Source: Paraspadella gotoi
Taxonomy: Eukaryota; Animalia; Chaetognatha
Assembly: GCA_051294375.1 (NCBI GenBank)
Contig: JBJCIZ010001037.1
Location: 1 to 36,164 of the forward strand
Length of the DNA stretch: 36,164 bases
Direction: 5' to 3'
The notes beneath the pieces are model-generated. The model made no database searches and had not been told where the DNA came from. It saw nothing but the letters and a program-made list of their open reading frames with translations. Every line of letters begins with the position of its first letter. The first letter of the stretch is position 1. The position numbers were made by a program, and so were the translations under genes. Shown in pieces: positions 3,001 through 30,238 of this stretch.

Positions 3001-6000
3001 AAACTTTTAAAAACAAAGAAAAAACGCTTTATTTCCAAGTAAACAAGAGATAAAAAATTCTTAAAACACCGGAAAAACGATGTATTTTCAAGAAAAAAGA
3101 AAATAAAAACGTTAATACTTCTGCAAATAACATCAGTCGCAGGTTAGTTAAAATCTGGGTGAGGACGTTATTAAATATCTTCCTTTATTATAATAAATTC
3201 TCTCTCTTTTATTTAATGTCTCCTTTCTCTCTCTGCTTTCTCTTTAATTTTATGGTAGCTTTCTCTCACTCTCAAAAGATAAACACGTTAAATTACATCC
3301 AGAAAACGACTTTTTCTCTGTAAAAGACTAATGAAAACTTTAAAAAATAACAGAAAACGATTTTTTCCAATGTTAAAAAGAATTAAAAACTTTAAAAAAA
3401 AACGCCAAGACCGTATTCTCCAATGTAAAAAGAGAGTTAAAAAAACCCGTATAAACGACTTTTCTACAAGTAAAAATGAATAAAAACGTTAAATACCCCG
3501 GCAGACGATGCATTTCCAAAGCAGATAACAAACTTTAAAAACAAAGAAAAACGCTTTTTTCCAAGTTAAAAAAGAGAAAAAAATTTCTAAAACACCAGAA
3601 ACGATATTTTCAAAGCGAAAAAGAAATAAAAAACGTTACAATACTTCTGCAAATAAAATCATCGCAGGTTGTTAAAATTGCATACCTGGTGCAAGGACAG
3701 TTATTAAATATACTCTTTATCAAAACAAACAATTTCCTCTCTTTTATTTTTATGTCTCCCTTCTCTCTCTCTCTCTTTTCTTTAATTTTATGTAGCTTTC
3801 TCTCTCACTCTCAAAAATAATTATACCAGTCTAAACACCAGTAGAAATGTACTTTTCTCTGTTAAATAAATATGAATAACTTAAAAATAATCATGAAACA
3901 CGATTTCTTAATGAAAAAGAAATAAAAAACTTTAAAAAAAACGGCAAAACGGTTTTTTCCAATTGTTAAAAAAATTATAAAAAAACACCTGATAAACGAC
4001 TTTCTAAAAGTAAAAAAGTATAAAAACGTTAAATACAGCGGCAGACGATATTTCCAAAGATCCGAAAACCACTTTAAAAACAAAGAAAAACGGCTTTTTC
4101 CAATGTAAAAAGAAGATAAAAAATTTCTATAAAACACCGGGATAACGATCATTTTCAAAGAAAAAAAAATAAAGAACGCTAAATACTTCTGCAAATAAAC
4201 ATCATCAGAGCGTTGTTAAAATTGGGTGAGACATGTTACTTAAATATCTTTTTATCAAAACAAAACAATTTCCTCTCTTTTAATTTGATGCTCTCCTTCT
4301 CTCTCTCTTTTCTCTTTATATTTTACTGTAGCTTTCTCTTCACATCTAAAGATAAAAAACTTAAATACACCAGGAAAACGACTTTTTCTTCGCTAAAAAA
4401 TATGAAAAAACTTTAAAGAATAACAGGAAAAACGATTTTTTCCAATGTAAAAGAATAAAAACTTTATAAATAAAAAACGGGCAAAGTTTTTCCAATGTAA
4501 AAAGAGATTAACAAAACCACCGATAAACGACTTTCTAAAGTTAAAAAGTAATAAACAACGTTAAAATACACCGGCAGACGATATTTCCAAAGAAGATAAC
4601 AACACTTGTTAAAAACAAAAGAAAAACGCTTTTTCCAAATGTAGAAAAAGAAATACAACAAAAAATTTCTAAAACACCGGGAAAACGATATTTCAAACAA
4701 AAAGAAATAAAACGTTAAATACTTCTGCGCAATAACTATCATCGAAGGTTGTCTAAAACTTGGAGGGCAGGAACAGTTATTAAATATTCTTCTTATCAAA
4801 AACAAACAAATTTCCTCTTCTTTTTTATGTATTCTCAGTCTCCTTTCTCTCTTATTCTCTTTAATTTATGTAGCTTCTCTCACTCTCAAAGATAACAAAC
4901 GTGTTAAATACACACGACAAACGACTTTTTCTCTGTAAAAAGATATGAAACTTAAAAACATAAAGAAAACGATTTTTTCCAATGTAAAAAGGATAAAAAC
5001 TTTATAAAAAAAAACGGCAAAACGTTTTTCCAATGTAAAAAGAGTTAAAAAACACCGATAAACGACTTTTCTAAAGTAAAAAGTGAAGAAAAACGTTAAA
5101 TACAGCGGCAGACGATATTTCCAAAGCGGTAACAACTTTAAAACCAAAGAAAACGCTTGTTGCCAAGTTGTAAAAAGAAGATAAAAAATTTCTAAAAACA
5201 CCGGAAAACATTATTTCAAAGAAAAAAAAGAAATAAAAACGTTAAATCTTCTGCAATAACCATCATCGAGGTTGTTTAAATTGGTGCGGAGCGACAGTAT
5301 AAATATCTTTTAATCAAAAAAACAAATTTCCTCTCTTTTATTTTTATGTCTCCTTCTCTCTCTCTTTTCTCTTACTTTTATGTAGCTTTCTCTCACTCTC
5401 AAAAGATAAAAACGTTAAATAACAGGCCAGGAAACGACTTTTTCTCTGTAAAATATATTTGAAAACTTGAAACAATAACAGAGAAAACATTTTTTCAATG
5501 TAAAAAGAAATAAAAAACTTTTTAAAAAACGGCAAACTTTTTTTCCAATGTAAAAAAATAAAAAAACACCGGATAAACGACTTTTGCTAGAAGTAAAAAT
5601 AGTAATTATAAAACGTTAAATACCCGGGCAGACATTTTTCCAAGAGATAACAACGTGTAAAAACAAGCAAGAAAAACGCTTTTTTCCAATGTAAAAAGAG
5701 ATTAAAAAATTTCTAAAACAGCGCGCGAAAACGATATTTTCAAAAGAAACAAAGAAATAAAAACGGTTTAAAATACTGTCTGCAAATAACGATCGATCAA
5801 GGTGTTTAAAATTGGTGTGAGAGACAGTTATTAAATATCTTTTATCAAAACACAAACAAATCCTTTTCTTATTTTCTATGTCTCGCTTCTACCTCTCTCT
5901 TTTGCTCTTTAATTTTATGTAGCTTTCTCTCGCACTCTCAAAAGATAAAGAAGCGGCTTAAATACACCAGAAAAACGACCTTTTCTCTGGTTAAAAAGAT

Positions 6001-6752
6001 ATTGAAAAACTTTAACAAAAGATAACAAAAACGATTTTTTTCCAATGTAAAGAAATAAAAACTTTTAAAAAAACGGCAAACGTTTTTTCCAATGTAAAGA
6101 AGTTAAAAAAACACCGATAAATAAACGACTTTCTACAGTAAAAAGTAATAAAAATGTTAAATACACCGTCAGACGATATTCCAACGAGCATATACAACTT
6201 TAAATAAACAAGGAAAAAGCCTTTTTCCAAATGCTAAAAAGAGAGTAAAAAATCTCTTTAAAAACACGGGAAACATGATTTCAAAGAAAAAAGAAATAAA
6301 AAACGTTAAAATGACACTTTAGCCAATAACATCATCGAGGTTGTTTAAAATTGTGTGAGACGAGTTTATTAAATATCTTTTTATCAAAACACAAACAAAT
6401 TTCCTCTCTTTTATTTTTATGTCTCCTTCTCTCTCTCTTTTTCTCTTTAATTTTATGTTACTTTCTCTGCACTCTCAAAAGATAAAAAACGTTAAAATTA
6501 CACCAGAAAACGGACTTTTCTCTGTAAAAAAAGATATTGAAAACTTTAAAAAAATAACAGGAAAGAACGATTTTTTCCAATGTAAAAAGAAATAAAAAAC
6601 TTTAAAAAAAAACGGCAAACGTTTTTTACCAATGTAAAAGAGTTAAAAAACACGAATAAAGACTTTTCTAAAGTAAAAAGTGAATAAAAAACGTTAAAAT
6701 TACAGGCGGCAGACGACTCATTTCCAAAGAGATAAAACTTTAAAAACCAAAG
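1..6752. repeat. Tandem satellite array, ~510-555-bp unit, ~12.5 copies, AT-rich
   Basis: Marker GTAGCTTTCTCTCACTCTCAAAAGATAAAAACGTTAAATACACCAG recurs at about 39, 577, 1134, 1673, 2209, 2717, 3255, 3792, 4328, 4870, 5381, 5918 and 6457. Copies differ mostly by single-base indels. The array stops mid-unit at 6752. Confidence 0.97.
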
Positions 6753-7083
6753 CCAAGATTAGAGGCAATCACCCTATCACCAGGCTTTCTTTCCGCCGGC
6801 TCCCTCTTCCCCCTCTCAACTCCCCCCTCCTCCTCCTCCTCTCGTCCCTTCCTCCTCCCATCCCCTAGCGAGTGGACCGGGCTCTCCTCTCTCTCTGGAC
6901 GGCACTCACGGCGCCAAGGGCTACCAAGACCCGCGCGAATCCCTCTTTCGCTCTCTTCCTTTTTCCTTTGTAGTGTATTTGCTGTGGCCTATACCCCTTT
7001 TTATTATTACAATCTTACTTACCTCTTTTTACTTGGTTGAGAGGGTAGTCAGATCCTCTTTCTAGCCAGTTATTCTATCTTCA
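6753..7083 (+). repeat. 5' LTR of element 1
   Basis: CCAAGATTAGAGGC...GGACGGCACTCACGGCGCCAAGGGCTACCAAGACC...GCCAGTTATTCTATCTTCA is colinear with 27239-27564 and ends in CA. It could be 5'-truncated. Confidence 0.9.
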
Positions 7084-7086
7084 GAG

Positions 7087-7104
7087 TGCTCGCCAATCAG
7101 GCTC
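7087..7104 (+). promoter_or_regulatory. Possible degenerate primer-binding site
   Basis: TGCTCGCCAATCAGGCTC starts 3 nt after the LTR-terminal CA, the same spacing as the PBS of element 2. It lacks one G of the canonical TGG, in a noisy region. The tRNA was not identified. Confidence 0.35.
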
Positions 7105-7389
7105 TCCCCTAGGTTTAAACCTACCCCAGGATTAAGAGTCCCGTGCTTCCGACTTAAGTTAACCGGGCACGTTAAACCCACCCCAACCCACCCGAAACAT
7201 CAAATTTCTTCGTTTCTTTTCTAAGCTAACCTCATCTTAATGTTTTGTCTCTACCCTAAACTTTTTCTTACCTCGTCGCGCAAAAAAAAGATTTTTTTTT
7301 TTTCAACTCTAACCTAAATTTTCTAATTTTTTTTCTATCTCTCCTCGCGCAAACACACACACAACAAAAAAAACGATTTGTCAAAAACG

Positions 7390-7830
7390 AAAATTGCTAA
7401 AGTGTTAGAGTAAAATCTCATAATTTTTTCTTTTCAGGCACTTAATCCGCGGAAATTTAATAAACAGTCCGTAGAAAAATTGTAAAAGTGTAAAACTGCT
7501 AAAAGAGTATCTCATCATCTTTTCTTAGCACTAACGCGGAATTGTAAAAGTGGTAATAAATTTAAAGTGTAAAATTATAAAGTTTTAATCTCATCCTTTT
7601 TGTCAGCACTAATCCGGAAGTGTAAAAATTGCTAAAAAAATTGTAAAAGTGTTAAAATTATAAAGTATTAATCTCATCCTTTTTTCGCTACTAATCGGAA
7701 GTTGTTAAAAGTTGTATAAAAAACTTTTGGTTAAAGTGTAAAATTATAAGTATTTAATCTTAATCCCTTTTTTTCAGCAGCTAATCCGGGAAATTGTTAA
7801 AGAGTAAAGTGTTTCTCATGCGCATTTCCG
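7390..7830. repeat. Degenerate ~80-90-bp tandem repeat, ~5 copies, in the 5' leader
   Basis: ATCTCATCCTTTT...AGCACTAATCCGGAA..TGTAAAA recurs at about 7415, 7510, 7588, 7671 and 7757. Confidence 0.8.
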
Positions 7831-9319
7831 CGAAACGTGTAAAGAGTCAAGAGCGTAGTCTTAAGAGGACATGAAAATAAAAATAAAAATACGAAGTGAT
7901 AAGTAACAAAAAGTAACAAAGTAAACAAGTCAAATTTCAAAACTCGACTTTCCGAAAACTTTGTTCGGACGTCTATTATCTTATCACTCTCTCGCGTTTA
8001 TTCAACTTTTCACTTTGTTTCACTATCCCCTCGATTTGCGTCCTGCACTCTATCTCCTAATCTCATTAAGCCCAAATCTATTTTCACTCTAGTTTAAAGC
8101 TCATGTTTACATATTTACTATTCTATTTTAATAACTAACTAATACTTACCTTTCTCCTCAAATATTGATCCTAATCATCTATATTCTTTTTTTTTTTTAT
8201 TCTTTATTTGATTATTTAGTATTAATCTCGATTATTAAATTTTATTTAGTTTATTAAATTTATTTCGATTTTATTCTCTGTCCTTGACTTCCCTTTCTTT
8301 CAAAGATTCCATTTGGAATTACTCTCCACCTAATTTTCGACTTTATCTCTGATCTCTATTTCTCTATTTTATTCCTCCCTTCTTTTTCTACTCTCGTTTT
8401 TTCTAATCTCTCGGGTTTCGGTCTCCTTTTTATTATCTATCTTCTATCTTTTTTTCCTTCTTCGGGTATCGGGTTTCCTCTGTATTCTATCTTCCCTTTT
8501 TTTATTTCATCTCTATACTATCCTTTGATACTTCACTATTTTCGACTTAATCAGCTATTTCACCATTTTCGACATTTGAGAATCCACTATTTCGACTTAA
8601 TCCCGCTCTAACTCAGTTTTGGTTGATCCATTGTACTACTTCGCTGTGCCCTCTCCAATTTAACTCAATCTCAGCACAACCTAAACTCTCTTCTACTCTA
8701 TTTCTATTTCGATCTCCAAACTTTACTTCTATCTCTGTTTCTATTTAAATCTTCATCTCAATCTTAACTCTTCCATTCTATTCCTATTTCTCTCCGAGTT
8801 TATTTTTTAAAAAATATAATATATATATAATTTCAAGAACACGACTTAAATCTTAATTCTCCCCTTGGTTCACTCTCTACATCTTTGCTCTCTTTCTCGC
8901 TTTCATCTTTCTACATCTCTCTCTCCTTGACTTACCCTCTCCTCACCCCCTTTGTCAAGCTGAAATCCCCCTCACTCCCTCTCCCTTACTGACGGACTCT
9001 GCATTCCTCTCATCCCGCCTTTCACTTCTTCACTCCTTCATTTCTCTCCCCCCATAACCTTTACCGATATGACCCAGAGGGTACATTTCCATTTTCTCAC
9101 GTTCCCCCTCTTCATTCTTTGCCCGCATTGACCTGAGAGTCAGTCTTCGATCACACTATCTTACTACTCTTTCTCTTCCCCCTCTCATCTGTTCATGCTC
9201 TTCCCTCTCCTCATCCTCTCTACTCCTAAGAGCACAAGCTGCAAAGAGAGGAACCGTCGACCTCTGACCGAAAAACGCTCTACGCTGCCTCCTCGTGGTC
9301 CAAGCTTACTTTCCCTCTC

Positions 9320-9415
9320 CTCATTCTCTCTCTCTCTCTTCTGTCTTACCTCTCTCTCTTACTCTCCCTCTCTCTCTCTCTCTTAACTCTCTCTCCTCTC
9401 TTACTTCCCCTCTCC

Positions 9416-9465
<50 letters not shown>

Positions 9466-9570
9466 CTCTCTCTCCTCTCTCTCTCTCCTCTCTCTCTCCT
9501 CTCGCCCTCCCTCCACTCCTCGCTCCCTTTTCCTCTTCTTTCCCTCTTCTCCTCCCCCCCCTCTCGCGGC
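9320..9570. repeat. (CT)n microsatellite / polypyrimidine tract
   Basis: Directly visible CT runs. Confidence 0.95.
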
Positions 9571-9788
9571 CGATATAACCCCTAACGACTCTCGGTCCTC
9601 TCCCCCTCCCGCTCTTTTGTTACCCCCCTTCCAGTTTTATTACCCCTCCGCACAGCCAAAACCGATTCCTTGATTTATCCGAGCAGCTGACAAAGTTAGC
9701 CTAAAGAGTGACAGAAAAGTAATGACAATAACGGAGCAAAAGTAACTGGGTGAAGAAAAGGATTGAGAAAAAAATTTCAGCGACCGTG

Positions 9789-10017
9789 TAAAAAATAATT
9801 AAATTGTGGCTTCTTCCTTCCAAAAAAATATATATAACAAACAAACAAAACAAAACTTAAATTGAGATCTATTCCTTTTCCGTCTTGATCTTCTCTTATT
9901 CTAAAAAAATAATTAAATTGTGGCTTCTTCCTTCCAAAAAAAAATATATATAACAAACAAACAAAACGAAACTTAAATTGAGGTCTATTCCTTTTCCTTC
10001 TTGATCTTCTCTTATTC
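9789..10017. repeat. Near-perfect tandem duplication of ~113-116 bp
   Basis: TAAAAAATAATTAAATTGTGGCTTCTTCC...TTGATCTTCTCTTATTC occurs at 9789-9901 and 9902-10017. Confidence 0.92.
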
Positions 10018-10103
10018 TACGAATTTTTCTTTCGATCTCGCGAAACTTTCTTGCTCGTCTTCTCTCTCTCTTTCTCTTTTTTTTCTCATTTTCCTTGCCC
10101 GTT

Positions 10104-10373
10104 ATGTTTCTAGTAGACGATGAAATAAACGAAGATTGTTTGCGCCGCGCATTTTTCCCGCGTTTTACCGATCCGTCTTGCACGTTACAACATTGGTTGT
10201 TGCACTATAGCCGCTGTTCGTATTGCCGTGCCTGTACTTTCTGCACAATCTGCTCACTGGACGAAACCCACCCCACCCGTTTCTGCCCGACCCTTACCGA
10301 AACATTAGAGAAATTTAAAAATCTCAGAGTTGAATCCCCTACACCGTCGGAAGAATCTGAAACCTCGAGGTGA
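10104..10373 (+). CDS. 89-aa Cys/His-rich upstream ORF with a zinc knuckle (possible first exon of gag)
   Basis: ATG at 10104, TGA at 10371-10373. Contains HYSRCSYCRACTFCTICSLDETHPTRFCP; the last part has the C-X2-C-X5-H-X4-C spacing of the Gag knuckles. Confidence 0.6.
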   Translation: MFLVDDEINEDCLRRAFFPRFTDPSCTLQHWLLHYSRCSYCRACTFCTICSLDETHPTRFCPTLTETLEKFKNLRVESPTPSEESETSR

Positions 10374-10614
10374 ATCCATTTACAACAGAAACTTTAAATT
10401 TTCAAAAAAAAGAAAATTTGAATTTTCGAAACGACGACGCGTTTTCTTCCTTTTTATTTTTCGTCCTTTTTTTCGCCGCCGAACGATTCGTCGACGACGA
10501 ATCATCATCCTCCTCCTCTGAATCCTCCTCTCGTGAATTCCTCCTCCTCCTGAAACTCGTTCTCGTTCTCGCTTCTCTCACTTCAATTGGACTACCCCCC
10601 CCCATCTTCGACTC

Positions 10615-10654
10615 TTCTGTCTCTCTCTCTCCCCCTTATATTTTTTTTCATCTA

Positions 10655-10691
<37 letters not shown>

Positions 10692-10702
10692 TATCTTTCT
10701 CT

Positions 10703-10757
<55 letters not shown>

Positions 10758-10945
10758 CCTTATCTTTCTTCCCCTTTTCTCTCCTCTATTCTTTTCTCTC
10801 CTCGCTTTTACTCTCTCTATCGAATTTTTTTTTCTTTTTCTCTCCTCTATCCCTTTCTCTCTCTTCTCTCTCTCTCTTTCCTCTCCCTCTCTCCCTTATC
10901 TTTCTTCCCCTTTCTCTCCTTTATTCTTTTCTCTCCTCGCTTTTA
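10615..10945. repeat. (CT)n-rich tract
   Basis: Directly visible CT runs, followed by (CTTAY)n-like repeats to ~11210. Confidence 0.93.
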
Positions 10946-11314
10946 AACTACTTTAAACTTTAAGTACCCTTTCCCTTTTATTTCCCCTTCACCCACTTTA
11001 GCTTTAGCTCACTCTATCTTACTTATCTTATCTTATCTTATTTTACCTCCTTCCATTTTACTCCACTCTAATTTTTTCCGCTTTATTCTATCTTACCCTG
11101 CCTCACCTTACCTTACTTTACTTATCTTACCTTATCCTACCTTATTTCCACTCTACGTCACTTTAGTTTATTTCACCTTCACCTTAATTAAACTTACCTT
11201 ATCCACTTCCCCTTAAAATTACTTCTCTTTATTTCTCCCTGCCTTACTCACCCTTCTTTCTGAAGAACTAAATCCGACCTAATTTCCAACGTAAATACAT
11301 CAAAGGAAATCACG

Positions 11315-13534
11315 ATGGCAGGCAAGAGCGCTTCCTTGGAGGATCTAATGCAACATGAGGATGGTGCTGGTAGACTCTCTGCTAGGTCACGATCAAGAGA
11401 CTCTCTACAAAGCAGAACTGTGTCACTAAGGTCAAGATCCAGGGAAAGGAGTAGTGATAGAAAGAGATTTGAAGGACCCCAATTCATGGAACACAGAGAA
11501 GTGGTAAAGAGGTTTGAAACTGATGAATCAGATGACGAGGGGAACAAAAGCGATACCCCAGATGTTGAAGAACAATTTAGGGGAACACAAGACCAATTCA
11601 CAGTGTTCACACAGAGAATAGGTGATCTTGAAGATGAAAACAACACCCTTAAATCAGAAAACGACACCCTTCTGTCAGAAAAAGCCCAAACTCGCATAAA
11701 TATGGACACCCTTACATCGGAAAGAGACCAGACTGAACGCAAACTCCAGCATGCTGAAAGCGAGATTATAGGATACAGAGAGAAAAACACCGACCTCATA
11801 AGGGAAATCGCCCAGCTAAGAAATGCCCTGGAGGGACTAAAAACAAAAGAAACAACAAGGATAGCCTCTGAGGCTATGAAAGAGCTCAATCTAATTGACG
11901 ATGACCTTGATGAAAATTCTCAAAGGAGAACTTCACTACCCACTTCACAACACCCAGCAGCCCTCATCCCTCCTAAACTCCAAGAAGCTGCAAAACCCAA
12001 ACAAACAAAAAGGACAATCTCCAGCAGAGACGAACATCCAGCCAGTGCCCCAACATCCCCAAAAAGGCCAGAAAGTGCGACAGCATCACCACAAAGAAAG
12101 CGTACTGTTGAGGACCTTGACGAGGATCTACTGCTCCTCCGCCAGGAACTTTACAAACAAAGTGAAGCAAGAGAAAAGGAGAGAGAGGCCCGAGAAAGAG
12201 CAATGGAGCTACTGGAAATTGAAAGGAAGAAAAAGAGGGAGTATAAAGAAAGACTTCACAACCTCTCAGACATGATGAGTGGAATGACAGTAAGAAATAG
12301 AAGCAGTAGCCGCAGTGAAAGTGTAGCATCATCCAAGAATCGGTCAACAACAGGAAGCCACAAAGCGCTAATCTGCGATGAGGAGAACATTGAATCTGGG
12401 ATCTCAACACCGAGAGAAAATGGAGAAAATTCGAAAGTGAAAGGTAAACATTTCCCCAAACGCGATAAGTACACAGCCTTCAGCGAGTATTTTGCGGCTC
12501 TCAAAGAGAGTATAAGAAATTGCATTGGACAGGGTCACACCATGTCGCAGATTGCATGGGAGCTATACCTCCATGCACAGGACAGTAGCTATGGTGGTGA
12601 GTTCCTGCACCAGCTAAACCGATTAGGCCTAAGTGATAAAAAGAAAACAGTAGACGGAATACTTAAAGCCATAAAGATGTCAGATTTTGATCATCGATTT
12701 CTGAGCGCATGGGAGCGTTTTGCTCAGCTTAGTAAAACTGGATCTGAAGATGTAGCCGCCTGGATGAGACGCCTGGAGACAGCCTACGATGCGTGTGCCC
12801 ATGTCTTTGATGATGCCGAAGAGTTCAGATCCAGACGATCCCACGAAATTAAGAAACAATTCTTCAAAGGCGGGGATTTCCCAGAATGGATGGCAGCACA
12901 ACTTCGTCCTTTCCATGACCTTACTGAGCTAGTACTGAACTGCAGAACGCTTGTGACCAAAGAAAGGAACAATAAGCAAAGACAAACAACAAACAACACT
13001 GCTGCGCAGCAACCACAACAACAGCGACCTTTTCGATCCCGCAATCAGCAACAACGACCGCAACATTTCCAACCGCAGCAACATTTGCAACCGCAGCAAC
13101 AATTCCAACCGCAGCAACCGCAGCAGCCACTCCTGCCCCACACCCCACAACAATTCCAACCACAGCCCACCCAGCATCTGCAACCCCAAAGGCCAATCCA
13201 ACCACAACCACTCTTGCGGCAGCAACAACAACCACAGCATCAAGCACTTGCTGCAACAGTGGATCCATTTGTCCGGCCTGATGGATCAGTTTCATTTAGA
13301 CCAAAGAGAGCAGATCGAATCCCTGCACCACTCAATGCAGGAAGGATGCCACTTGATGGGGAACATGACCCAAACTTCAAAGGAAGAATGTGCCTACACT
13401 GCCGACAAATAAACAAACACCTATCAGGACACTGTGGATACCAAAATTTCTGCCTGCACTGCAATTTAGAAAATGAACACACCACTCCTCATTGTCCACT
13501 GAATCCACAACAACAACAACAAAACCAGATATGA
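11315..13534 (+). CDS. gag: Gag polyprotein, 739 aa
   Basis: N-terminal coiled coils; capsid-like motif FAQLSKTGSEDVAAWMRRLETAY; Q/P-rich tract; two knuckles CLHCRQINKHLSGHC and CLHCNLENEHTTPHC; lies directly upstream of pol. Confidence 0.92.
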   Translation: MAGKSASLEDLMQHEDGAGRLSARSRSRDSLQSRTVSLRSRSRERSSDRKRFEGPQFMEHREVVKRFETDESDDEGNKSDTPDVEEQFRGTQDQFTVFTQRIGDLEDENNTLKSENDTLLSEKAQTRINMDTLTSERDQTERKLQHAESEIIGYREKNTDLIREIAQLRNALEGLKTKETTRIASEAMKELNLIDDDLDENSQRRTSLPTSQHPAALIPPKLQEAAKPKQTKRTISSRDEHPASAPTSPKRPESATASPQRKRTVEDLDEDLLLLRQELYKQSEAREKEREARERAMELLEIERKKKREYKERLHNLSDMMSGMTVRNRSSSRSESVASSKNRSTTGSHKALICDEENIESGISTPRENGENSKVKGKHFPKRDKYTAFSEYFAALKESIRNCIGQGHTMSQIAWELYLHAQDSSYGGEFLHQLNRLGLSDKKKTVDGILKAIKMSDFDHRFLSAWERFAQLSKTGSEDVAAWMRRLETAYDACAHVFDDAEEFRSRRSHEIKKQFFKGGDFPEWMAAQLRPFHDLTELVLNCRTLVTKERNNKQRQTTNNTAAQQPQQQRPFRSRNQQQRPQHFQPQQHLQPQQQFQPQQPQQPLLPHTPQQFQPQPTQHLQPQRPIQPQPLLRQQQQPQHQALAATVDPFVRPDGSVSFRPKRADRIPAPLNAGRMPLDGEHDPNFKGRMCLHCRQINKHLSGHCGYQNFCLHCNLENEHTTPHCPLNPQQQQQNQI

Positions 13535-16500
13535 CAGGATACGACGCTCCCGGGCGAGGAACTACTGGAAACTCTCTGCATCTCCCTCACCTATGACCTG
13601 CCCCAATTGTTTCAAAATGGACCCACAGTGAAAAGCCTAATACTCTCCCATTTCAACAACCACCCCCACACTAACCCTGAACAGCAATACAAAAATGCAC
13701 TACTTGACCTCCCCGGTGGCGTCCTAATGGAATGTCTGGCCTCTGCCTTGGATGCCAGAATTGAGATTCTCCAAGAGAATCGCCTTGTATATAAATCTAA
13801 ATATGATGGAACTGATGAACTAACACTGGTATATAATAATGACCCACAATCACTCCTTTTCTCCCACATCAACTTTTCAACCCCACAAACCTTCCTTGAC
13901 AAACTAGCCACACCCCAGCCTATTGTACCTTTGATGCCTTTGCAATCTGCCCCTGTTCAGCCAATGATGACTCACACCTCTTTAGGTGCTACTGTAATAC
14001 CTTCCTCAACCTCTCCACACTCTCTGTCACCACATAGTGAATCTGACATCTCTAAACACACCAAAAAATCTGATATTGAAAATCTTCACCGCCTTGAAAA
14101 CCATGAAAACCATGTAAATTCAACGCTTCTCTCCCAAATCTCCCCATCAAATCTTACAACTGAAAATTTGCCAAAATGCTTTCGCCAATTGAATAATCTG
14201 AGACAAGAGACAAGAGACCTCCTTTTTCAAGCCATGGGACAGGGACCCACAACTGCTAAGGTGAAATCTATCCTTGATGATATCAAGGCAAAACAACAAA
14301 ATAAGAAAAGTACAACTCTTGAATGCATTCCTGAAAATGCAGCTGAGAGCCACCAGAGTGCACATGAACAATCCCTGGAGAATGAGACGGTGCCTAAATC
14401 AAACCCAACCACGACCAGGATCACAGATCAAGCTGCGCTTGTAGCATCAATAAACCATGACAAAGATGGCCGTTTTGGAGACAGGCTTCAAGACTACAAA
14501 ATCAAGGATCTTGTGGCCTTTTGGTTGCCTTCGTCCTACAATGAAGGAAACACAGTAAAACTGCAACAAATTCTTGATACAAAACAACAGAAATTTGGCC
14601 AACCCATGTATCTAGTTGGAATCTTTCCTAACAAAAGGGTGAGACCCATGACCATAGATACCGGGGCAACAACATCCATGATTAGCGAAACCATGGCCAA
14701 AGAACTGAACCTAACCTTCTTGAAACGTGACCCATGCAACATCCATACAGCAAATGGCCCAATAATCTCTGACAGAGTGGCAACATCGCTAGTAGACCTC
14801 ATCGTGGTTAAGGTCCGGATGGAATTCTTGGTCATTGACAATCCTAGCTATCCACATTCCTTCCTACTTGTGGGATCTTCCTTCCTCCGCTCCAACAACT
14901 TTATGCTAGACCAGGATTTCCTGACCCTCTCGGAATCAATCAAAATACCCTTAATGGCCGGCCTAAACAATGCCCAAAAACACATTGATATGATCCAGAG
15001 AGATTACATCTCGGTAGCTGGAGAGGGCCTTCGAATGTCAGGAAATAGATCAATCCCACCAAAGAAAAATATCACTATCAGCGTCCGTCTGGATGAAGCA
15101 AGTAGCAAAAAACATGCTGGGCTCTGCATCCACTTTGAGAATGGCATAAGGAACATGATTGGAGTCCACGCACTGGACATGCTAATCTCCAAAGATCACG
15201 ATTATCTACGAAACCCAGTTAATTTGGTTGTCCAAAATCGCACAGACAAAGAAGTGGTGATAAAGGATGGCACTTACCTAGGAACCTTAAGAACTGTTGT
15301 GGATGAACAGCTGAAAACAGAACTCCAACACTGCGCATCAGCACAAGTGTCAGCCCTGGTCACCAAATCAAAACATGGCAGAATTGCCGAAGCATGGAAC
15401 AATCTCGCCCATGAATCACAAAAGCACACTTGCTTCATTGGGCGATCAACGGATGACAAGGACCTGGAAGAAGGCGAAATACTTGATGATCTGGAGGATG
15501 GTGAAATTGAGGACTCCCAAGAAGAACATATTCCTGATGACGACATGGATTTAGGCGTAGAGGTCCCAATATGGCTGTCTGACAGACTGGATGAGATTGA
15601 CAGGGAAGATAGAGCAAACAAACCAATCGCTTCCAAAGAGACATCAATAATTGAGCGAAATGACAAGCCAAAACATGAAATTGATGCTGCAATCACAAAG
15701 GTTCAGCGTGACATGGAAAAATACTGGGACCAAAAAGGAAAAGAAAGCCTGCTAGAGAAAGTGGTCATTGGAAAAAGGCTGACGGATGAGCAAAGGCGCC
15801 GCTGTGAGGACCTAACTTGGGAGTATAGATGCATATTTGCTACTAACTTCCAACACGCTGAAGCAGGCATACGTGACTATGCAGTGGACATGGCTTATGA
15901 TCCTGATAAGGTTGTTGCAGCAAATCCACGACCCACTGGTGTCTTTCAAAAACAACTGCTCTCCCGCTATATTGATATACTACTGAGAGCAAATATCCTT
16001 GAGCCATCAAAATACTCTTCTGTCGCCAATGCCTTCGTGATTGAGAAAAAGAGCTGCAAGATTAGATCAATTGAGCAGTTATCTAATGCTTCAGATGAAG
16101 AAATCTCAGCAAACTTCCGCCTTGTAGCAGATCAATCACACCTGGGAAAAGCCATGAAACCTTTCTCAAGCTTCCTCATCACCATGCGAGAGATGATGAC
16201 CTTTATGGAGGCAAATGCCTTCTATGTTACAGCTGATTTCTCAAACTTCTTCTACCAGATCCCATTGTCAACCACATGCAGAGCCATAACCTCCATCTAT
16301 GGTGGGGATAACAAGTCTTATAACTTTCAGAGAGTGACTATGGGGTCCCGGCCTGCCTTTTCAACGGCATCTCGAGTTGTGGAACTAACCTTCAGAGACT
16401 GTTTCTCCGTAAATGAATACTTAAGTTATGCAGATAATTTTTCCTTGAAAGCATCAAGCGTGGATGAGAGCTTGGATCAATATCAAACCTTTTTGGCTCG

Positions 16501-19500
16501 ATGCAAACACCAGAACCTCTTACTCAAACCTGGTGAGCTCTTTGTAGCCATGAAGGTTGATGACAACAATGGCGCATTTCAATTCTTGGGATTTGAATTC
16601 AGAGAAGGCAAAATCTTTCCTGGAAAGAAGAAACTTGCAGACTTTTCCTCACGCCCACTACCAACAAGCCGGAAAAAGGTGCTGCAACTTGCCCAATCCC
16701 TGAATTTCTTCCGCACCTTTAGCCCAAGATTTGCTAATGAACAAAAACAACTTTATGATGAACTGGAGCGCCAAAGGCTTTCTACAAGCAAATTTAAACT
16801 TACGCCCAAGATGATCCAACATCTCCGTGAACTACTCCATTTAGTGATGGACAGCAACGGGCTACACCTTCTAGTAAAGGATGATATCCACAAAAGTGTG
16901 TTTCTCCTCTTCACAGATGCATCAGAACTCAGCTATGGGGCAGCACTGTTTACACTTCGAGAGGGGAAACTACTATGCCTCTACTCCGTCTCTAAATCTT
17001 TCCCTCGCCCACAAATGAAATACCACATTAATAGGAAAGAACTGTTAGGATTGTACAACGCCATGCAGCAGATGTCACTGTTTTTGAGGTTTCGTAAATT
17101 CTTTGTGGTCACGGACTCTGCTTCTGTCCACAGTTGGGCACGCACGCAGATTTCATCTTTGCCCACATCTGTTCGCACACCCCTGCTCTACATGAGAGAG
17201 ACCTTCTGTTTCAGAACAATCCTTTGCAAGTCAGGGGATCAGCTGGCAGACCTCCTCACCAGATATGTCAAACCTGAAACATCATATGAGCAGGTTGAAG
17301 ATACTCTATTCAAGCTACACCAAGGCCCAAAACCTGACCATCACCTGGACGTTACAACCTTGAATGAAACCTGTGCTGCAGAAATCCAGGGACACAATCA
17401 AGCTTTTATGGAAAATACTACCAGTGACCATATTGAAGATGTTATCACCGACTCAGCCAGGTCAAGTGACCAGACCTGCTACGCAGCCCCTCATGGTCTT
17501 GAAGAATTTGATCTTCAGGAGTCTAGTGAAGAACTGACAACATTAGAGCAATCTGACAGTGATACAGACTCTGACAAAGAGATCACAGCTTTTGTTGCAC
17601 CAGCTACTAAACCTAAAAAGCATGGACAGGGTCAGAAGCGACCACCAAGTGACTCTGAAGATGAAACAAAAGCCAGAAGATATCCACGCCGCTGCATTAA
17701 GCCCCCAGAGCAACATACCAAACTTGAAGACTCAGATGCTGATGATGAGTCCCAAACAAAACAGCATCCACGCCGCTGCACTTTACCAAAGAAACAAGTA
17801 GTAAAAGTTGCTGAAAAACCAAAAGATGCAACAATCGTGGCTGAGGTATGCAATCGGGAGGGCCAAAGCTCTAAGACAAAAGTTGATAACCCACTAGAGA
17901 TCCAAGTCTCCAGAGTAGATGGAAAATCCTTTCAGATAAATCTTGATTCAAATGGGAAAGCCTACCTCTTGGCCCCAATAGAAATCAGCAAATCACACCA
18001 AGCTGAGCCAGAGATTGAAACACCCGGAAGACTGCTGGGGACACAAAACCAGGAAGGAGTCGCAACTGGTCCAGAGGATACAACTCCGAAATGGTCTGAT
18101 GCCACTCTCATATCTGTGGACACGAACCACACTCACAAAGAACCACAGGATATTGGTTGCACATGCAGAGTTAAACCAAACCCCAGCAGAAGAATCGCTC
18201 CAGATTCCTTAGAGATAATACAAGAAGGTAACCCCACTGACTTTGAACCAACAGAAAGCATCCTTGAAGATGCCATTGCAGCCGCGGGAGCAGAAACCAA
18301 CCCTTGTCCCAAAGCTGAAGACATCACATCAGAAATTGAAAGAGCTCAGCAACTATGCTCTGATACCCAAGCAATGGTTGAAGTGATAAGAATGAATGAA
18401 TTGCCGGAACAGCATGTGGCACGAACAAGATCCCCTTATCTCAATCATCTCATGGAAATAAGACCAAATCTCAAAATCACTGGTACATCGCTCTTCTTCT
18501 GCAAACTCAATGATGATGGCTCAATTACAAACACAGTCGTAGTCCCTCCCACTAAAGCCCAAGAACTGGTGATGAAAATACATTTGGACCTGGCTCATGT
18601 CAATCCCTCCCGTCTAAGATGCTCCATCTCTCAAAAATACTACATTCACAAGCTTCATGAGGCCTGCACAAGATGCTTCAAGACATGCGAGAACTGCCGT
18701 TTGGCACAAAAAGCCAAATTGTCTAAAGGCAGAAAAGTCCAAATTTTTGACTCAGCTGTAGCCAACACCTTTCATGCAGACCTGCTACAGCTGGAGGAGA
18801 TCCATTCCTACAAATACCTCCTCGTCCTTGTAGATCTGTGTTCAAGGTATGTGATAGCTGACGCTCTCAAAGCAAAAACGGCTGAATCAGTGGCTGAGTC
18901 CATTAAAAACATATGCTTTACCTACCAGCTATGCATTAACAGAATAGAGACAGACTTAGGCAAAGAATTCAGGAACAGCCTCATAGACTCTCTCAAGACA
19001 CAGCTTGGCTTTAGTTGTGTCAGCCTAAGACCCTCTCAGAAAAACTCAAACTTAGCAGAGAAGGTCAATGCTACGATTGTGGACCTTTTCCGACGTCTTC
19101 AACCAACAGGGGAACCCTGGACAAGGACCTGGAAAATGGTGATCAGAGCAATCAACATTGCGCCCATCAAATACTCTGATGACCTAACTGTCTCTCCTTT
19201 CAAATTGTTCTATGGTCGAGAGCCTACTCTCCCAAACCTACCTGATGTGACCACAACCCCACCTCATGGAACCGATAATGACTATCAATTTGAAAAACTA
19301 ATCCGCCAAGACGGGCTTCTCCAACGCGTCTGTCAACTCCGCTGCCTTGAGACTCCACCAAGTCTAATTCTACTTGGCACCGATGACTATGAGGTGGGCG
19401 AGAAAATCTTAGTCTGGCGAAATTTCGTTGAAAAGGAAAAGACAACGAAAGTGAAATCTTTAGAATTCAAACTCATGCCAAAATACGAAACTGCCTTAGT

Positions 19501-19597
19501 AACAAAGAAAAATGGTGACCAGTACCTAGTTCAACCAACGGATGGATCAAAACAAAGAGTTGTCCACAGAAGAACAATGAAGAAAATTAAACAGTAA
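13535..19597 (+). CDS. pol: Pol polyprotein (aspartic protease, RT, RNase H, integrase), in frame with gag
   Basis: Frame open from 13535. Protease TIDTGATTS (~14657). RT FRLVAD, ADFSNFFYQIPL, YADN (16427), FLGF. RNase H LFTDAS, RKELLG, VTDS, LADLLTR. Integrase H-X4-H...CENC, HADLL, ETDLG, LAEKVN, with a GPY/F-like C-terminal module (YEVGEKILV...VVHRRTMK). Confidence 0.97.
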   Translation, partial: QDTTLPGEELLETLCISLTYDLPQLFQNGPTVKSLILSHFNNHPHTNPEQQYKNALLDLPGGVLMECLASALDARIEILQENRLVYKSKYDGTDELTLVYNNDPQSLLFSHINFSTPQTFLDKLATPQPIVPLMPLQSAPVQPMMTHTSLGATVIPSSTSPHSLSPHSESDISKHTKKSDIENLHRLENHENHVNSTLLSQISPSNLTTENLPKCFRQLNNLRQETRDLLFQAMGQGPTTAKVKSILDDIKAKQQNKKSTTLECIPENAAESHQSAHEQSLENETVPKSNPTTTRITDQAALVASINHDKDGRFGDRLQDYKIKDLVAFWLPSSYNEGNTVKLQQILDTKQQKFGQPMYLVGIFPNKRVRPMTIDTGATTSMISETMAKELNLTFLKRDPCNIHTANGPIISDRVATSLVDLIVVKVRMEFLVIDNPSYPHSFLLVGSSFLRSNNFMLDQDFLTLSESIKIPLMAGLNNAQKHIDMIQRDYISVAGEGLRMSGNRSIPPKKNITISVRLDEASSKKHAGLCIHFENGIRNMIGVHALDMLISKDHDYLRNPVNLVVQNRTDKEVVIKDGTYLGTLRTVVDEQLKTELQHCASAQVSALVTKSKHGRIAEAWNNLAHESQKHTCFIGRSTDDKDLEEGEILDDLEDGEIEDSQEEHIPDDDMDLGVEVPIWLSDRLDEIDREDRANKPIASKETSIIERNDKPKHEIDAAITKVQRDMEKYWDQKGKESLLEKVVIGKRLTDEQRRRCEDLTWEYRCIFATNFQHAEAGIRDYAVDMAYDPDKVVAANPRPTGVFQKQLLSRYIDILLRANILEPSKYSSVANAFVIEKKSCKIRSIEQLSNASDEEISANFRLVADQSHLGKAMKPFSSFLITMREMMTFMEANAFYVTADFSNFFYQIPLSTTCRAITSIYGGDNKSYNFQRVTMGSRPAFSTASRVVELTFRDCFSVNEYLSYADNFSLKASSVDESLDQYQTFLARCKHQNLLLKPGELFVAMKVDDNNGAFQFLGFEFREGKIFPGKKKLADFSSRPLPTSRKKVLQLAQSLNFFRTFSPRFANEQKQLYDELERQRLSTSKFKLTPKMIQHLRELLHLVMDSNGLHLLVKDDIHKSVFLLFTDASELSYGAALFTLREGKLLCLYSVSKSFPRPQMKYHINRKELLGLYNAMQQMSLFLRFRKFFVVTDSASVHSWARTQISSLPTSVRTPLLYMRETFCFRTILCKSGDQLADLLTRYVKPETSYEQVEDTLFKLHQGPKPDHHLDVTTLNETCAAEIQGHNQAFMENTTSDHIEDVITDSARSSDQTCYAAPHGLEEFDLQESSEELTTLEQSDSDTDSDKEITAFVAPATKPKKHGQGQKRPPSDSEDETKARRYPRRCIKPPEQHTKLEDSDADDESQTKQHPRRCTLPKKQVVKVAEKPKDATIVAEVCNREGQSSKTKVDNPLEIQVSRVDGKSFQINLDSNGKAYLLAPIEISKSHQAEPEIETPGRLLGTQNQEGVATGPEDTTPKWSDATLISVDTNHTHKEPQDIGCTCRVKPNPSRRIAPDSLEIIQEGNPTDFEPTESILEDAIAAAGAETNPCPKAEDITSEIERAQQLCSDTQAMVEVIRMNELPEQHVARTRSPYLNHLMEIRPNLKITGTSLFFCKLNDDGSITNTVVVPPTKAQELVMKIHLDLAHVNPSRLRCSISQKYYIHKLHEACTRCFKTCENCRLAQKAKLSKGRKVQIFDSAVANTFHADLLQLEEIHSYKYLLVLVDLCSRYVIADALKAKTAESVAESIKNICFTYQLCINRIETDLGKEFRNSLIDSLKTQLGFSCVSLRPSQKNSNLAEKVNATIVDLFRRLQPTGEPWTRTWKMVIRAINIAPIKYSDDLTVSPFKLFYGREPTLPNLPDVTTTPPHGTDNDYQFEKLIRQDGLLQRVCQLRCLETPPSLILLGTDDYEVGEKILVWRNFVEKEKTTKVKSLEFKLMPKYETALVTKKNGDQYLVQPTDGSKQRVVHRRTMKKIKQ

Positions 19598-21009: not shown

Positions 21010-21367
21010 TCAAATTCCCCTCGAAACCAATCTGGGACGCGGTGTGAACAGAGGAGAAGATATTGATGTTGAAGTAGCCTTGGGCAGAGCGATGTCTTGT
21101 ACAGACGATGACGTAGCCTTGGGCAAGGGGATTTCCTGTACAGATCGTCCAGTGTATGTCACGAAAGACTTTCCCAATTCTAACTCAGATGGGCTGGTCT
21201 GAGAATTATCTTCGATTTCAGTGGACGAGGTGTCCAGCTCTCCATAAACACCCAGCAGAGGCATGCCCCATCCCTGATCTTCATGACTGTGATGGAACTC
21301 TTGCGGAACCACAAGCTGCTGCATCCTTGGGAAGACCTCCGTGTTATTGTGAGGCCAGCGCATCCGC
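21010..21367 (-). CDS. Antisense spliced gene, exon 3 (terminal), unknown protein
   Basis: Acceptor TTTATTCAG immediately 5' on the minus strand; phase 2 joins exon 2 in frame; ends with TGA at 21012-21010; minus-strand AATAAA at 20874-20869. Confidence 0.65.
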
Positions 21368-21780
21368 CTGAATAAATATAAAATTAAAAATTAAAGCACT
21401 AAAATAAATAAAACTAAATTAAAACGACTAAAAATTAAAAATCATTAAAGTTAAAATAAATAACTTACTAGAACGTATATCCTTCTTTCACTAAAATCTA
21501 CACCTCACCCAACTGATTATTCACCTTTTCTCTCTCCCTCCTTTCCTCTATCTTTCTTTCTCCCTCTCTCCTCCTTTCTCCCTCTCTTTCGCTATCTCTA
21601 TCTCTTTCTCTCGATTCCTCTTTACCTCTCCCATCCCCCCTTTTTTTCTCCCCCTCTCTCCCTTCCTATTCTCCCTTCCTATTTCTCTCCCCTATCTCTT
21701 CCTCTCCATCTCTCTATCTTCCTCTCTCCCTCCCTCTATGACCCCCCCTCCATCCTCCCTCCCCCTACCCTCTTACTTAC

Positions 21781-22026
21781 ACTGGAAAAGCGGTAGCTAC
21801 GTAGGGCCTGTCCCTCCTCCCTAATGTGTTCCGGCGCACATGAGCGCCAAGATAAATCCGTGAAACACCATCGTCAGGCACCCGAACGAGGCCCTGGCCT
21901 TCAAGGACAACTGGGCTGCCAGGAACCCCATGCTGATGATGGTAGACAATGCCTGCAGAGCCTTGGCCATTTTCAACGGCAGTTTCGGGCCCAGTGAATC
22001 GAGCCCCAGGAACAGCCTCGTTCAAT
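21781..22026 (-). CDS. Antisense spliced gene, exon 2
   Basis: Acceptor CTTTTACAG and donor GTAAGT at 21780. The only open frame is the one required by the phase-2 end of exon 1. GC-richer island between CT tracts. Confidence 0.72.
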
Positions 22027-22109
22027 CTGTAAAAGTTTCAATTGACTCAAATTAAATTAATGAGATCTTATTCTCTACCCCCCCCCACCCCGTCAATTTC
22101 TGTTCTCGT

Positions 22110-22800
22110 TCTCTCTCCATTTCACCTTTCCCCTACTCCTCCCTCTCCCTTCCTCTCTCTCTCTATCTATCTTTTTCTCTATCTCTCCCTCTCTTTTTCT
22201 CTCCTCTCTTTCTCTCTATCTCTCCCTCTCTTTTTCTCTCTCTCCTTTCCTCTCTCCTTCACGCTCTCTCTCGGTATTGACTCTTTCCTTCTTTCACTCC
22301 TCTTCTTTCTCTCTCTCTCTCTCTCCTCTCTCTCTCCCTCCCTCTTACTCTCTCTCCTTTTCTCTCTCCTTCACACTTTCTCTCGGTCCTTAACTCTTTC
22401 ACTCCTCTCCCCTCTCTCTTTCTTTCTTTCTCTCCCTCTCTTTCTCTCTCTCTCCTTTCCTCTCTCCTTCACGCTTTCTCTCGGTATTGACTCTTTGTCT
22501 CCTTCACTCTCTCTCTCTTCCCCTTAACTTTTTCTTTCTTCCGCTCCTCCTCCCTCTCTCTCTCTCTCTTCTTCTCTCTCTTTCCCTTTAACTCTTTCTT
22601 TCTTCCGCTCCTCTTCTACTCTCTCTCCTTCTCTCTCTCTATCTCTCCCTCCCTCTTACTCTCTCTCCTTTTTCTCTCTCCTTCACGCATTCTCTCGGTC
22701 CTTAACTCTTTCTCTCTTTCATTCCTCTTCCCTCTACCTCTCTCTCCTTCTCTCTCTCTCTCTGTATCTCTACCTCTCTCTCTCCCTCTCCTTCTTTCGA
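22110..22800. repeat. (CT)n-rich tract with internal duplications (antisense intron 1)
   Basis: CT runs; CTCTCGGTATTGACTCTTT and CTCTCGGTCCTTAACTCTTT each occur twice. Confidence 0.9.
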
Positions 22801-22892
22801 CCCTTAACCTTTAACCCTTAATGCTCGAGTAAAACAACAACAAAAATTTAACTAAAAGCAAACAAAAACGAAAATTACGAAACAAAACTTAC

Positions 22893-23326
22893 ATTTCAAT
22901 CTGGGTCTCCAGCCATGACATCACTGGGAACCAAGCGGCGCCCTTCCTTGATGCCTCACGCATCAGGGTCCCTCGTTGGAGACACCAGGTATAGAGTGGG
23001 ATGCGTGGAAGGCCCATGTCCACGTAACCCTCATCGATTTCCATCATGACGAGGGCCCCGTTAAGTTCCATGTTGTTGGTTGTCCCACCGGCACCGAAGC
23101 GCCGCAAGAGGTACTGCTGAACTCCAGGCAGTGAGACCCCAACATTGGGAAACTCCTTCTTGTCGAATATCTGGCCGGTGTTTCCCCGGGTAGCAGAGAG
23201 TAACGAGTTGGATAGCCTTCGTTTGTTATCCCTGGTCAGTGACATCCTTTTTCCTTTTTTCTCTGCACAAGGGCGCCACGAGGATCCGTTTCCAGAGCAC
23301 CTTTTCCTTTTGTTCGGATTTTCCAT
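22893..23326 (-). CDS. Antisense spliced gene, exon 1
   Basis: CAAAATGG start context at 23326; NLS-like PNKRKR; frame open to the donor AT|GTAAGT at 22892. Confidence 0.72.
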
Positions 23327-24782: not shown

Positions 24783-25841
24783 ATGAACCTGCTCCTGATC
24801 CTCACCGCTGCAGTCGTCGCCGCCGCTCTTCCCCCGTCTGTGGGACAAAAACTTTATGGATTTGACTGCTATGATCCGAGGACGAAAATCCTCCTCTCTG
24901 TCCCTTTCAAACAACTGAAACTGAATTACGGAACAAAATTCACGGCGACTGCGTTTAATGAACAATTCAGAGCCGCATGGAATGCAGATTGGATATATTT
25001 CCATCTGCACCATGAAGGATTTGTGGTACTATCGGAAGTGGACCCCGGCGCGCCACGCGGCCTTGTCGCCGCCATGATGGATGGAAAAGCACACCTGCTT
25101 CAATGCCACTACACCGAAGTCCACCCTGTGGAAAATGATGATGAATGCTTCGCTGACAAACTCGTGGAACTCCCGTCCGGCGCCAGGCGTTTCTTCGACA
25201 ATACTTCTGCCATCCTCGTCACCCACGGCAGAAAAGTGGAGTGCGGCCAGAAGACTCCCAAGGATCATGATGACTCCACCATTTCCAAAATTGCTGATGC
25301 CCTTGACGACGCCATGCTCTCACGAATGGCGATGTCCATCCTAGCAAGAGGTATCTTCAAGGGAGAGTTCGACGAGGACGTCACCAAGTTATTCAACCCC
25401 GATTCCATCCTGAAGCTCATTGAACTTGAGGAATTCGAATCAGACCACATCCTCAGCTCAATAGCCACCAAGATCAGGATGCTTTGGCCTAAGATAACTG
25501 TGGCTTACGTCACAGTCTACACCATCATCGCCATTGTCATTGTGTCGCTCGCCTTCTCCCGGGGAATCTCCCCTCTGAAGTGCTTTGCCTTAGTATTCTC
25601 GGTCTGCAAAATCTTAGTAGACTACGACAAATATCTTAAAGAGACGCAACTGCAAGAAAAGGCAGCACTTTATGAGGAGATTCCCAAGGAACCGCGCCAA
25701 GTACCTGAAGAGATAGTGGGCAACATCCTTGACTGCCTAAACAATATCCTCAATCGCATCGAAGACATTGAGGAAAGGCTTGAGCTCATGGATAATCGAC
25801 CGCCACCAGGGCGACGTGGGGTGAGGTCAACGCAACTCTAA
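24783..25841 (+). CDS. env: Env-like type I membrane protein, 352 aa, with chuvirus/gB (class III) glycoprotein-like motifs
   Basis: Signal peptide MNLLLILTAAVVAAA; YGFDC; GKAHLLQCHYTEV...ECFADKLVELPSGARRFFDNTSAILVTHGRKVEC; transmembrane segment ITVAYVTVYTIIAIVIVSLAF; C-terminal heptads; located between pol and the 3' LTR. Confidence 0.85.
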   Translation: MNLLLILTAAVVAAALPPSVGQKLYGFDCYDPRTKILLSVPFKQLKLNYGTKFTATAFNEQFRAAWNADWIYFHLHHEGFVVLSEVDPGAPRGLVAAMMDGKAHLLQCHYTEVHPVENDDECFADKLVELPSGARRFFDNTSAILVTHGRKVECGQKTPKDHDDSTISKIADALDDAMLSRMAMSILARGIFKGEFDEDVTKLFNPDSILKLIELEEFESDHILSSIATKIRMLWPKITVAYVTVYTIIAIVIVSLAFSRGISPLKCFALVFSVCKILVDYDKYLKETQLQEKAALYEEIPKEPRQVPEEIVGNILDCLNNILNRIEDIEERLELMDNRPPPGRRGVRSTQL

Positions 25842-27238: not shown

Positions 27239-27564
27239 ACAAGATAGAGGCTCATCCTATCACCAGGGCCTTCTCTCTCCCGCCGGGCTTCCTCTTCCCC
27301 TCTCAACGTCCCCCTCCTCCTCCTCCTCTCGTCGCCTCCTCCTCCTCATCCCTGGGAGTGCATCGGGCTCCCTCTCTCTTGGACGGCACTCACGGCGCAA
27401 GGGCTACCAAGACCGCGCGATCTCCTTCTCCTCTCTCTCCTTTTCCTTTGTAGTATTTTGCTGTGGCCTTAACCCCTTTTTATTATTACATAATTTACCT
27501 TATTTACCTCTTTTACTTGTGAGAGGGTAGTCAGATCCTATTCTAGCCAGTTATTCTATCTTCA
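27239..27564 (+). repeat. 3' LTR of element 1
   Basis: Colinear with 6753-7083; subterminal inverted repeat AAGATAGA/TCTATCTT; ends in CA. Confidence 0.9.
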
Positions 27565-27566
27565 GA

Positions 27567-27884
27567 GGAAAACTTCCATTTTTGGACGAGTTAGTCCAAA
27601 AAATATGAAAAAAAAAAATAAAACTTCTGTCTACCGAAAACCAACAGCGACAAAGGTGACTGAAACCGCAATCCTGTCACCATCTAAAATGTCCACATAT
27701 CGACACTCAAGGGTGAGCTTTGTCGTGCCAAAAGATTATGCTCTTCAACGGAATTGTTGGAAAAAGACAAAAATCTTATCCTAGACAAAGACGAAGACAA
27801 TGGCCATAATAGAAAGACTTTACAAAAAGTTACTGAGGAATACCATCCATCAGAAAAAGTAATTTTCAAGGCAGAAAGTCGGTA
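27567..27884 (+). pseudogene. Penelope-like element reverse transcriptase C-terminal fragment
   Basis: GKLPFLD at 27567, TSVYRKPT at ~27623-27646, then STLKGELCRAKRLCSSTELLEK...NGH. These are typical PLE RT/thumb motifs in the right order, with frameshifts. Confidence 0.85.
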
Positions 27885-30235: not shown

Positions 30236-30238
30236 AAG

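Follow-up and report, generated by a model that had tools for sequence, protein, structure and literature searches.

How does a retrotransposon make its Pol proteins when a stop codon in the shared frame stands between them and Gag? This question is raised by a long terminal repeat (LTR) element of ~21 kb, Ty3/gypsy-like and bearing an env-like open reading frame (ORF), that lies in a stretch of 36,164 nucleotides from the chaetognath Paraspadella gotoi (contig JBJCIZ010001037.1; hereafter the window is this whole stretch). An earlier note on this DNA had proposed stop-codon readthrough, and our computational analysis keeps this prediction as the best reading on the basis of a lone stop, relatives that are not fused to Gag, and a predicted stem at position +9 from the stop. 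Specifically, the gag stop codon TGA is probably read through by a minority of ribosomes, aided by a predicted 15-bp RNA stem that begins 8 nt past the stop.

The two ORFs concerned (11264-13534 and 13535-19597; all features are on the forward strand unless stated) share one frame, in which the TGA at 13532-13534 is the single stop among 2760 codons and the sole frame-0 stop within 13100-14000. The surrounding letters, CAG ATA TGA CAG GAT ACG at 13526-13543, are as the earlier note quoted them and place the stop in the context A-TGA-CAG. Its other observations on the junction were also borne out. The first in-frame pol ATG lies well downstream, at codon 65 (13727-13729), and the protease motif DTG is codon 375 of the pol frame. 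No frameshift is needed either, and frameshifting was rejected as the mechanism, since gag and pol share the frame, a bypass would need two shifts, and no slippery heptamer occurs in 13451-14062. The stop falls just past two nucleocapsid-type knuckles of the form CX2CX5HX4C at the 3' end of gag (13391-13435 and 13451-13495), 12 codons after the second of them; were a single stop placed at random, the chance of its landing in the 15 codons that follow the knuckles would be ~0.5%. Contigs from four of four sequencing runs (4 samples, 2 studies) cover the TGA and carry no alternative letter; these are 4 of 9 listed runs, contigs drop rare variants, and one run, X1, is possibly the source of the window itself. 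Over 2.1 kb the contigs of this family differ by seven substitutions and one indel, an in-frame deletion of 18 nt. Because the run contigs share the TGA, an assembly error is excluded, while an inherited mutation is still compatible with them. We consider the TGA at 13532 a likely programmed end of Gag. A diverged sister family from the same organism, with ~80% likeness in the capsid region, aligns to window positions 12700-12965 (contigs in X1, X7, X2, and X5); of 10 differences listed there, 9 affect the third position of a codon.

Type II readthrough signals, found in alphaviruses, furoviruses, and pomoviruses, have a spacer of 7-12 nt followed by a stem of 10-12 or more bp that closes a loop of 101-154 nt (PMC3159437). 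The arm separations of 100-155 nt in that paper prompted a stem search in which positions +5 to +30 from the stop were compared against +35 to +400. This yielded a predicted stem of 15 bp and -29.0 kcal/mol, with one 1x1 mismatch and one 1-nt bulge, whose 5' arm (13543-13559) follows a spacer of 8 nt (13535-13542) and whose 3' arm (13708-13723) follows a loop of 148 nt. As a prediction, the stem thus has Type II geometry (10 or more bp, 7-12 nt past the stop, a long loop), and the stop, as in that type, is UGA followed by C. The energy of the stem was reached at 1 of 200 other pol positions, in none of 300 shuffles, and by 20 of 3000 synonymous recodings. Four of 2627 gag-pol windows reached it; three of these represent this stem, and the fourth is a gappy duplex at 15077. 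The 5' arm is built from rare CpG codons (ACG, ACG, and CCG, with usage of 9, 9, and 6%) in an element with a CpG observed/expected ratio of 0.44, and the four CpG within 27 nt at the stem are matched by 6 of 2751 windows. Pairing probability of the stem exceeded 0.5 in 25 of 32 fold windows, and in 21 of 32 when the ribosome footprint was held open. Shorter windows missed it: the fold window suggested in the earlier note (13535-13620) stops short of the far arm, and its folding was poorer than that of shuffles (z +1.34). Stretches of 66-146 nt that followed the stop or surrounded it likewise did no better than shuffles when folded locally. A search for simple pseudoknots from +5 to +14 found none, and Rfam gave no match.

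The pol frame directly past the stop also looks translated. Codons 1-64, up to the first ATG, are free of stops, as are ~1 in 10 shuffles, and their codon-usage score was equalled by 40 of 3000 shuffles without stops, although set against the 41 other coding windows of the element they come fourth from last. A possible degenerate OTU-like domain spans 13535-13909 (Atlas similarity 0.90 to a cluster in which 20% of the members carry PF02338). This lead gained no match from Pfam, from sequences in the PDB, or from a fold search of a model with a pLDDT (predicted local distance difference test) of 49. OTU domains do occur in Ginger1 and Helitron transposons (PMC2836005). A resemblance of the first 125 pol codons to an N-terminal motif of four relatives (P0005, P0009, P0010, and P0011) was discarded: 1 of 500 shuffles did as well for P0005 alone, and the profile test was negative (211/1000).

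These relatives come from a HMMER scan with the reverse transcriptase (RT)-RNase H region, which gave 6241 matches; the 13 proteins with E of 1e-30 or lower were all from ENA apart from a single ordinary gypsy protein. Neither pol residues 1-700 nor gag residues 370-739 recovered a relative in word-based protein searches. In a quick tree of 38 rows, from which P0014 and P0177 were left out and which contained no named reference clades, the window RT stood beside P0003 in a long-stemmed clade of 16 rows (SH-like approximate likelihood ratio test, SH-aLRT, 100). Seven distinct relatives bear a protease (P0003/P0153, P0005, P0009, P0010, P0011, P0169/P0170/P0178, and P0182), and none of the seven has a knuckle or a match to the window Gag. 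The nearest, P0003, at 32% identity, is colinear with the window from codon 1 of the pol frame onwards, and gene calling starts its ORF at that same point. P0005, P0009, P0010, and P0011 have a common N-terminal motif but no common first Met, that of P0009 lying inside the motif. Since the relatives are unfused to Gag, the P0003 ORF starts at the junction, and the motif comes without a shared Met, the break between gag and pol looks old within the clade, as far as these protein sequences indicate. A profile search of proteins of 2810-5000 aa, which is a weak test, found no clade member. The one long match, P0177, is an ordinary, unrelated gypsy-type protein (20% identity, YLDD). In this polyprotein of 3096 aa, a knuckle and the protease are separated by a UPF1-like AAA helicase region.

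Several observations weigh against readthrough aided by this stem. The stop context is UGA-CAG and not the UGA-CUA/CGG consensus of Type II signals, and the 204-nt region as a whole folds like shuffles (z 0.14). Moreover, the 3' arm has a predicted rival partner in gag, where a segment at 13338-13362 pairs equally well with 13709-13730 (-28.8 kcal/mol); this duplex, found post hoc, was reached by 32 of 1000 synonymous controls. Of the 24 fold windows that contained this competitor, the +9 stem prevailed in 17 when folding was free and in 13 when the ribosome footprint was imposed, and the probabilities of the two pairings summed to about 1 in every fold window. Invariance of the TGA is weak evidence: the earlier note had proposed looking for it in other copies, and the same letter was indeed present in all four runs, but their contigs are nearly identical and perhaps represent alleles of one locus. 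Similarity to P0003 is weak over the first 130 codons (48 of 2000 shuffles were as good), and the ORF starts of the relatives are gene-caller starts, some on short contigs. Scans of viral contigs, prokaryote genomes, and metagenomes retrieved no junction DNA of relatives and hence no covariation support for stop or stem. The viral contigs held no related locus (0 of 6 pattern matches related), 0 of 15 candidate loci in prokaryote genomes were related, and the metagenomes gave none in a first scan and later 1 of 23, on a contig (L027) that starts at the protease. Finally, the gag-UGA-pol junction of Tca2 failed to direct readthrough when placed in a yeast reporter, and it contained a cryptic promoter (PMC2194720).

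Under the readthrough explanation, most ribosomes would terminate at the TGA and release Gag, while a few percent would insert an amino acid at the UGA-C with the stem positioned against the entry channel for mRNA. The product would be a Gag-Pol protein of ~2760 aa that co-assembles with Gag and is then cut by the protease. Translation through the stop, the role of the stem, and the resulting Gag:Pol ratio are what we infer from this arrangement. The competing pairing either weakens the stem prediction or points to a switch. A bolder and doubtful version of the proposal takes the second option, with the far arm as a two-position switch: readthrough would be off while the far arm is paired with the gag segment (170-195 nt upstream of the TGA) and on while it is paired with the arm 8 nt downstream, so that ribosome traffic through gag, or binding of Gag, might set the Gag:Pol ratio. 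A giant env-carrying Ty3/gypsy-like lineage would then have converged on the long-range readthrough stem of alphaviruses.

We also considered that Pol is made from a separate RNA, which would either be spliced so as to leave out the stop or start from an internal promoter close to the junction. A GTAAG donor in phase 0 is present at 12290; it would join in frame to the CAG at 13537 or to another, rich in pyrimidines, at 13960. Internal promoters are known from Tca2 (PMC2194720) and for the env of Tor (PMC4402516). However, only three GTRAG sites occur in 6700-14700, and the acceptors between stop and protease are not T-rich (T fraction at most 0.35, and 0.10 at the junction CAG), whereas those of an antisense ORF in the same element reach 0.45 and 0.70. 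Pol from such an RNA would lack the capsid region, and the stem 8 nt past the stop would go unexplained. We regard this alternative as unlikely.

Alternatively, ribosomes may end Gag at the TGA, skip the stem by shunting, and restart at the ATG at 13727 to give a free Pol. Shunting over a stem after a short ORF is familiar from caulimoviruses, the ATG sits 3 nt beyond the 3' arm, three out-of-frame ATGs lie within the loop, and the gene call for P0003 puts a Met at the junction. Restart after an ORF of 739 codons is normally poor, though, and Met65 is aligned with a Glu in P0003. Codons 1-64, which would be skipped, carry the coding signal described above, and the unconfirmed OTU-like lead extends across Met65. 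We regard shunting as distinctly unlikely. Restart at the stop itself was rejected, as the ATG that overlaps it (AUGA, 13531) opens only a 21-codon frame in -1.

In a third alternative the TGA is read through, but by virtue of UGA-C alone or of distant signals, and the stem is due to chance or serves packaging or stability. UGA-C alone allows ~1-2% readthrough in cells (PMC3159437), and fission-yeast elements keep only GAA-TGA-CT (bioRxiv 10.1101/2022.12.06.519325). Within the window, the pol duplex at 15077 is equally strong, and the competing gag segment may hold the 3' arm. On the other hand, a stem by chance would have to begin exactly at +9, use rare codons in its arm, and surpass all but 20 of 3000 synonymous controls, and we rate this alternative as no less improbable than shunting.

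Least of all do we favour an element with a single ORF in which the TGA arose by nonsense mutation or is a sequencing error: other parts of the window are prone to errors (indels in the LTRs and a second element riddled with frameshifts) and all runs may show one inherited locus, but the TGA recurs in each of the four runs, a position this close behind the knuckles has the 0.5% chance given above, none of the seven relatives is fused to Gag, and the stem is in place, so that this explanation is highly improbable and its sequencing-error form near refuted.

The gag product itself (11315-13534, 739 aa) consists of a coiled coil, a capsid-like region, a Q-rich linker, and the two zinc knuckles. 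The capsid-like region (12437-12979) is a lead from ESM Atlas features, which scored 0.92-0.93 to Retrotrans_gag/Ty3_capsid clusters with few shared features; a fold search of its model (pLDDT 58) gave no match. In Pfam the gag protein had no gag match, only weak coiled-coil-type ones. We therefore call it Gag on the basis of the knuckles and the Atlas lead to Retrotrans_gag/Ty3_capsid, a label on which Pfam and the fold search were silent.

The pol frame (13535-19597, 2020 codons) encodes, according to Pfam, protease (14642-14890), RT (16163-16594), RNase H (16892-17143), and integrase (18542-19018), which is the Ty3/gypsy order. Between RNase H and integrase lies an acidic, low-complexity spacer of ~400 codons (17250-18400), and the relatives have a similar one. 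Among solved structures, a profile of the clade matched Ty3 Gag-Pol best (E 5e-43), followed by a caulimovirus-type protein (1e-32) and foamy virus (8e-16). The RT motif of the window is YADN (16427-16438) instead of the canonical YxDD, and xxDN, with the second Asp replaced by Asn, was present in 13 of the 14 clade proteins tallied. Because of this RT without YxDD, we call the element Ty3/gypsy-like and file it under no named clade. Our literature search, which covered a minority of subscription papers, found no paper linking YADN with a retrotransposon.

The LTRs could be matched in part, at 84% over 345 columns with many indels, between 6754-7086 and 27240-27567; no primer-binding site, polypurine tract, or target-site duplication was identified with them. 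The left copy is truncated, cut by the satellite that it directly adjoins. This AT-rich satellite fills window positions 1-6750 up to the left LTR and has, judging by repeat spacing, ~537-bp units made of ~53-bp subunits. The leader (7087-11314) is 4.2 kb long and CT-rich, with nine ATGs and T-rich acceptor-like sites, and may be spliced. It includes a tandem repeat (7430-7790) in which every unit carries a T-rich acceptor-like CAG (7437, 7606, and 7777). Downstream of pol, a predicted three-exon ORF of 345 aa lies on the reverse strand (21010-23326), with GTAAGT donors, T-rich acceptors, and both joints open in frame; its exons 1 and 3 had no Pfam match. The env-like ORF (24783-25841, 352 aa) has signal-peptide-like and transmembrane-like stretches by hydropathy. 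As to an F-type or gB-type envelope, it gave only a weak match to Monjiviricetes_fusion (E 0.007, below the cut-off and covering a small part of the profile). Positions 29900-36164 hold a second LTR element, distantly related, with many indels and frameshifts throughout. Upstream of its protease region it carries two in-frame TAG codons, four codons apart (32221 and 32233), the first followed by CAA. As a comparator for the junction it was set aside, being too distant and too broken.

How the stop is bypassed in gag-stop-pol retrotransposons is still largely unresolved, local signals having failed in Tca2 and fission-yeast elements offering only a short context, according to the parts of those studies available. 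The Paraspadella element provides a concrete, testable signal of a type so far described for RNA viruses and a few cellular genes, one that the folding of short windows misses. If the proposal is true, it would be worth screening other gag-stop-pol elements again, this time for far arms lying 100-200 nt downstream. The element also marks a divergent, unnamed clade of retroelements with an xxDN reverse transcriptase.

Among known systems, the closest likeness in signal is to the Type II stems of alphaviruses, including Venezuelan equine encephalitis virus (VEEV) and Sindbis virus (SINV), furoviruses, and pomoviruses, which combine UGA-C with the same long-range geometry (Firth et al. 2011, PMC3159437); in SINV and VEEV, readthrough stems stimulate 3- to 14-fold (PMC3159437). 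The window differs from the alphavirus and furovirus cases in being an LTR retrotransposon, in having CAG for CUA/CGG and a competing upstream arm, and in that its stem is a prediction. Type I signals (tobamovirus, stop-CAR-YYA) were not matched, as the first codon of CAG-GAT fits and the second does not. Murine leukaemia virus likewise has an in-frame stop past the nucleocapsid and an 8-nt spacer to a 3' structure (PMC3159437, PMC2194720), but with UAG-G and a compact pseudoknot as opposed to UGA-C and a long-range stem, and the window clade has 140-510 extra residues ahead of the protease. The gammaretroviral comparison in the earlier note thus needs correction: the Type III combination of UAG-G with a compact H-type pseudoknot was not matched, and the predicted stem is of the long-range type instead. 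Since the CUA/CGG consensus and the gammaretroviral features are both absent, we do not file the signal as a member of either type; as modelled, it works like a Type II element.

In layout, the nearest elements are Tj1, Tcry1, and Tosmo1-3, fission-yeast Ty3/gypsy elements with gag-TGA-C-pol in one frame (PMC4600332; bioRxiv 10.1101/2022.12.06.519325). They qualify the statement of the earlier note that gypsy elements mostly use frameshifts or a single ORF, as an in-frame TGA has precedent there, and transposition of Tj1 requires its stop (PMC4600332). These elements are 5 kb long, belong to the chromovirus branch, and conserve GAA-TGA-CT, with no stem mentioned in the available text, whereas the window element is ~21 kb long and has env-like and antisense ORFs. 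Tca2 of Candida albicans (Ty1/copia) similarly combines gag-UGA-pol with a predicted 3' structure (PMC2194720). Env-carrying Ty3/gypsy elements of invertebrates, including Tor of Oikopleura, are likewise divergent elements in which an env-like ORF comes third beside gag and pol (PMC13524379, PMC4402516). No passage on readthrough was found in the available parts of those papers, and the 352-aa ORF of the window weakly matches another fusion family; the likeness drawn here is one of layout. The literature search, within the scope given above, found no long-range readthrough stem in an LTR retrotransposon. The gag-TGA-pol layout is already known in both gypsy and copia elements, and the new part is the predicted long-range stem in an unnamed, divergent clade.

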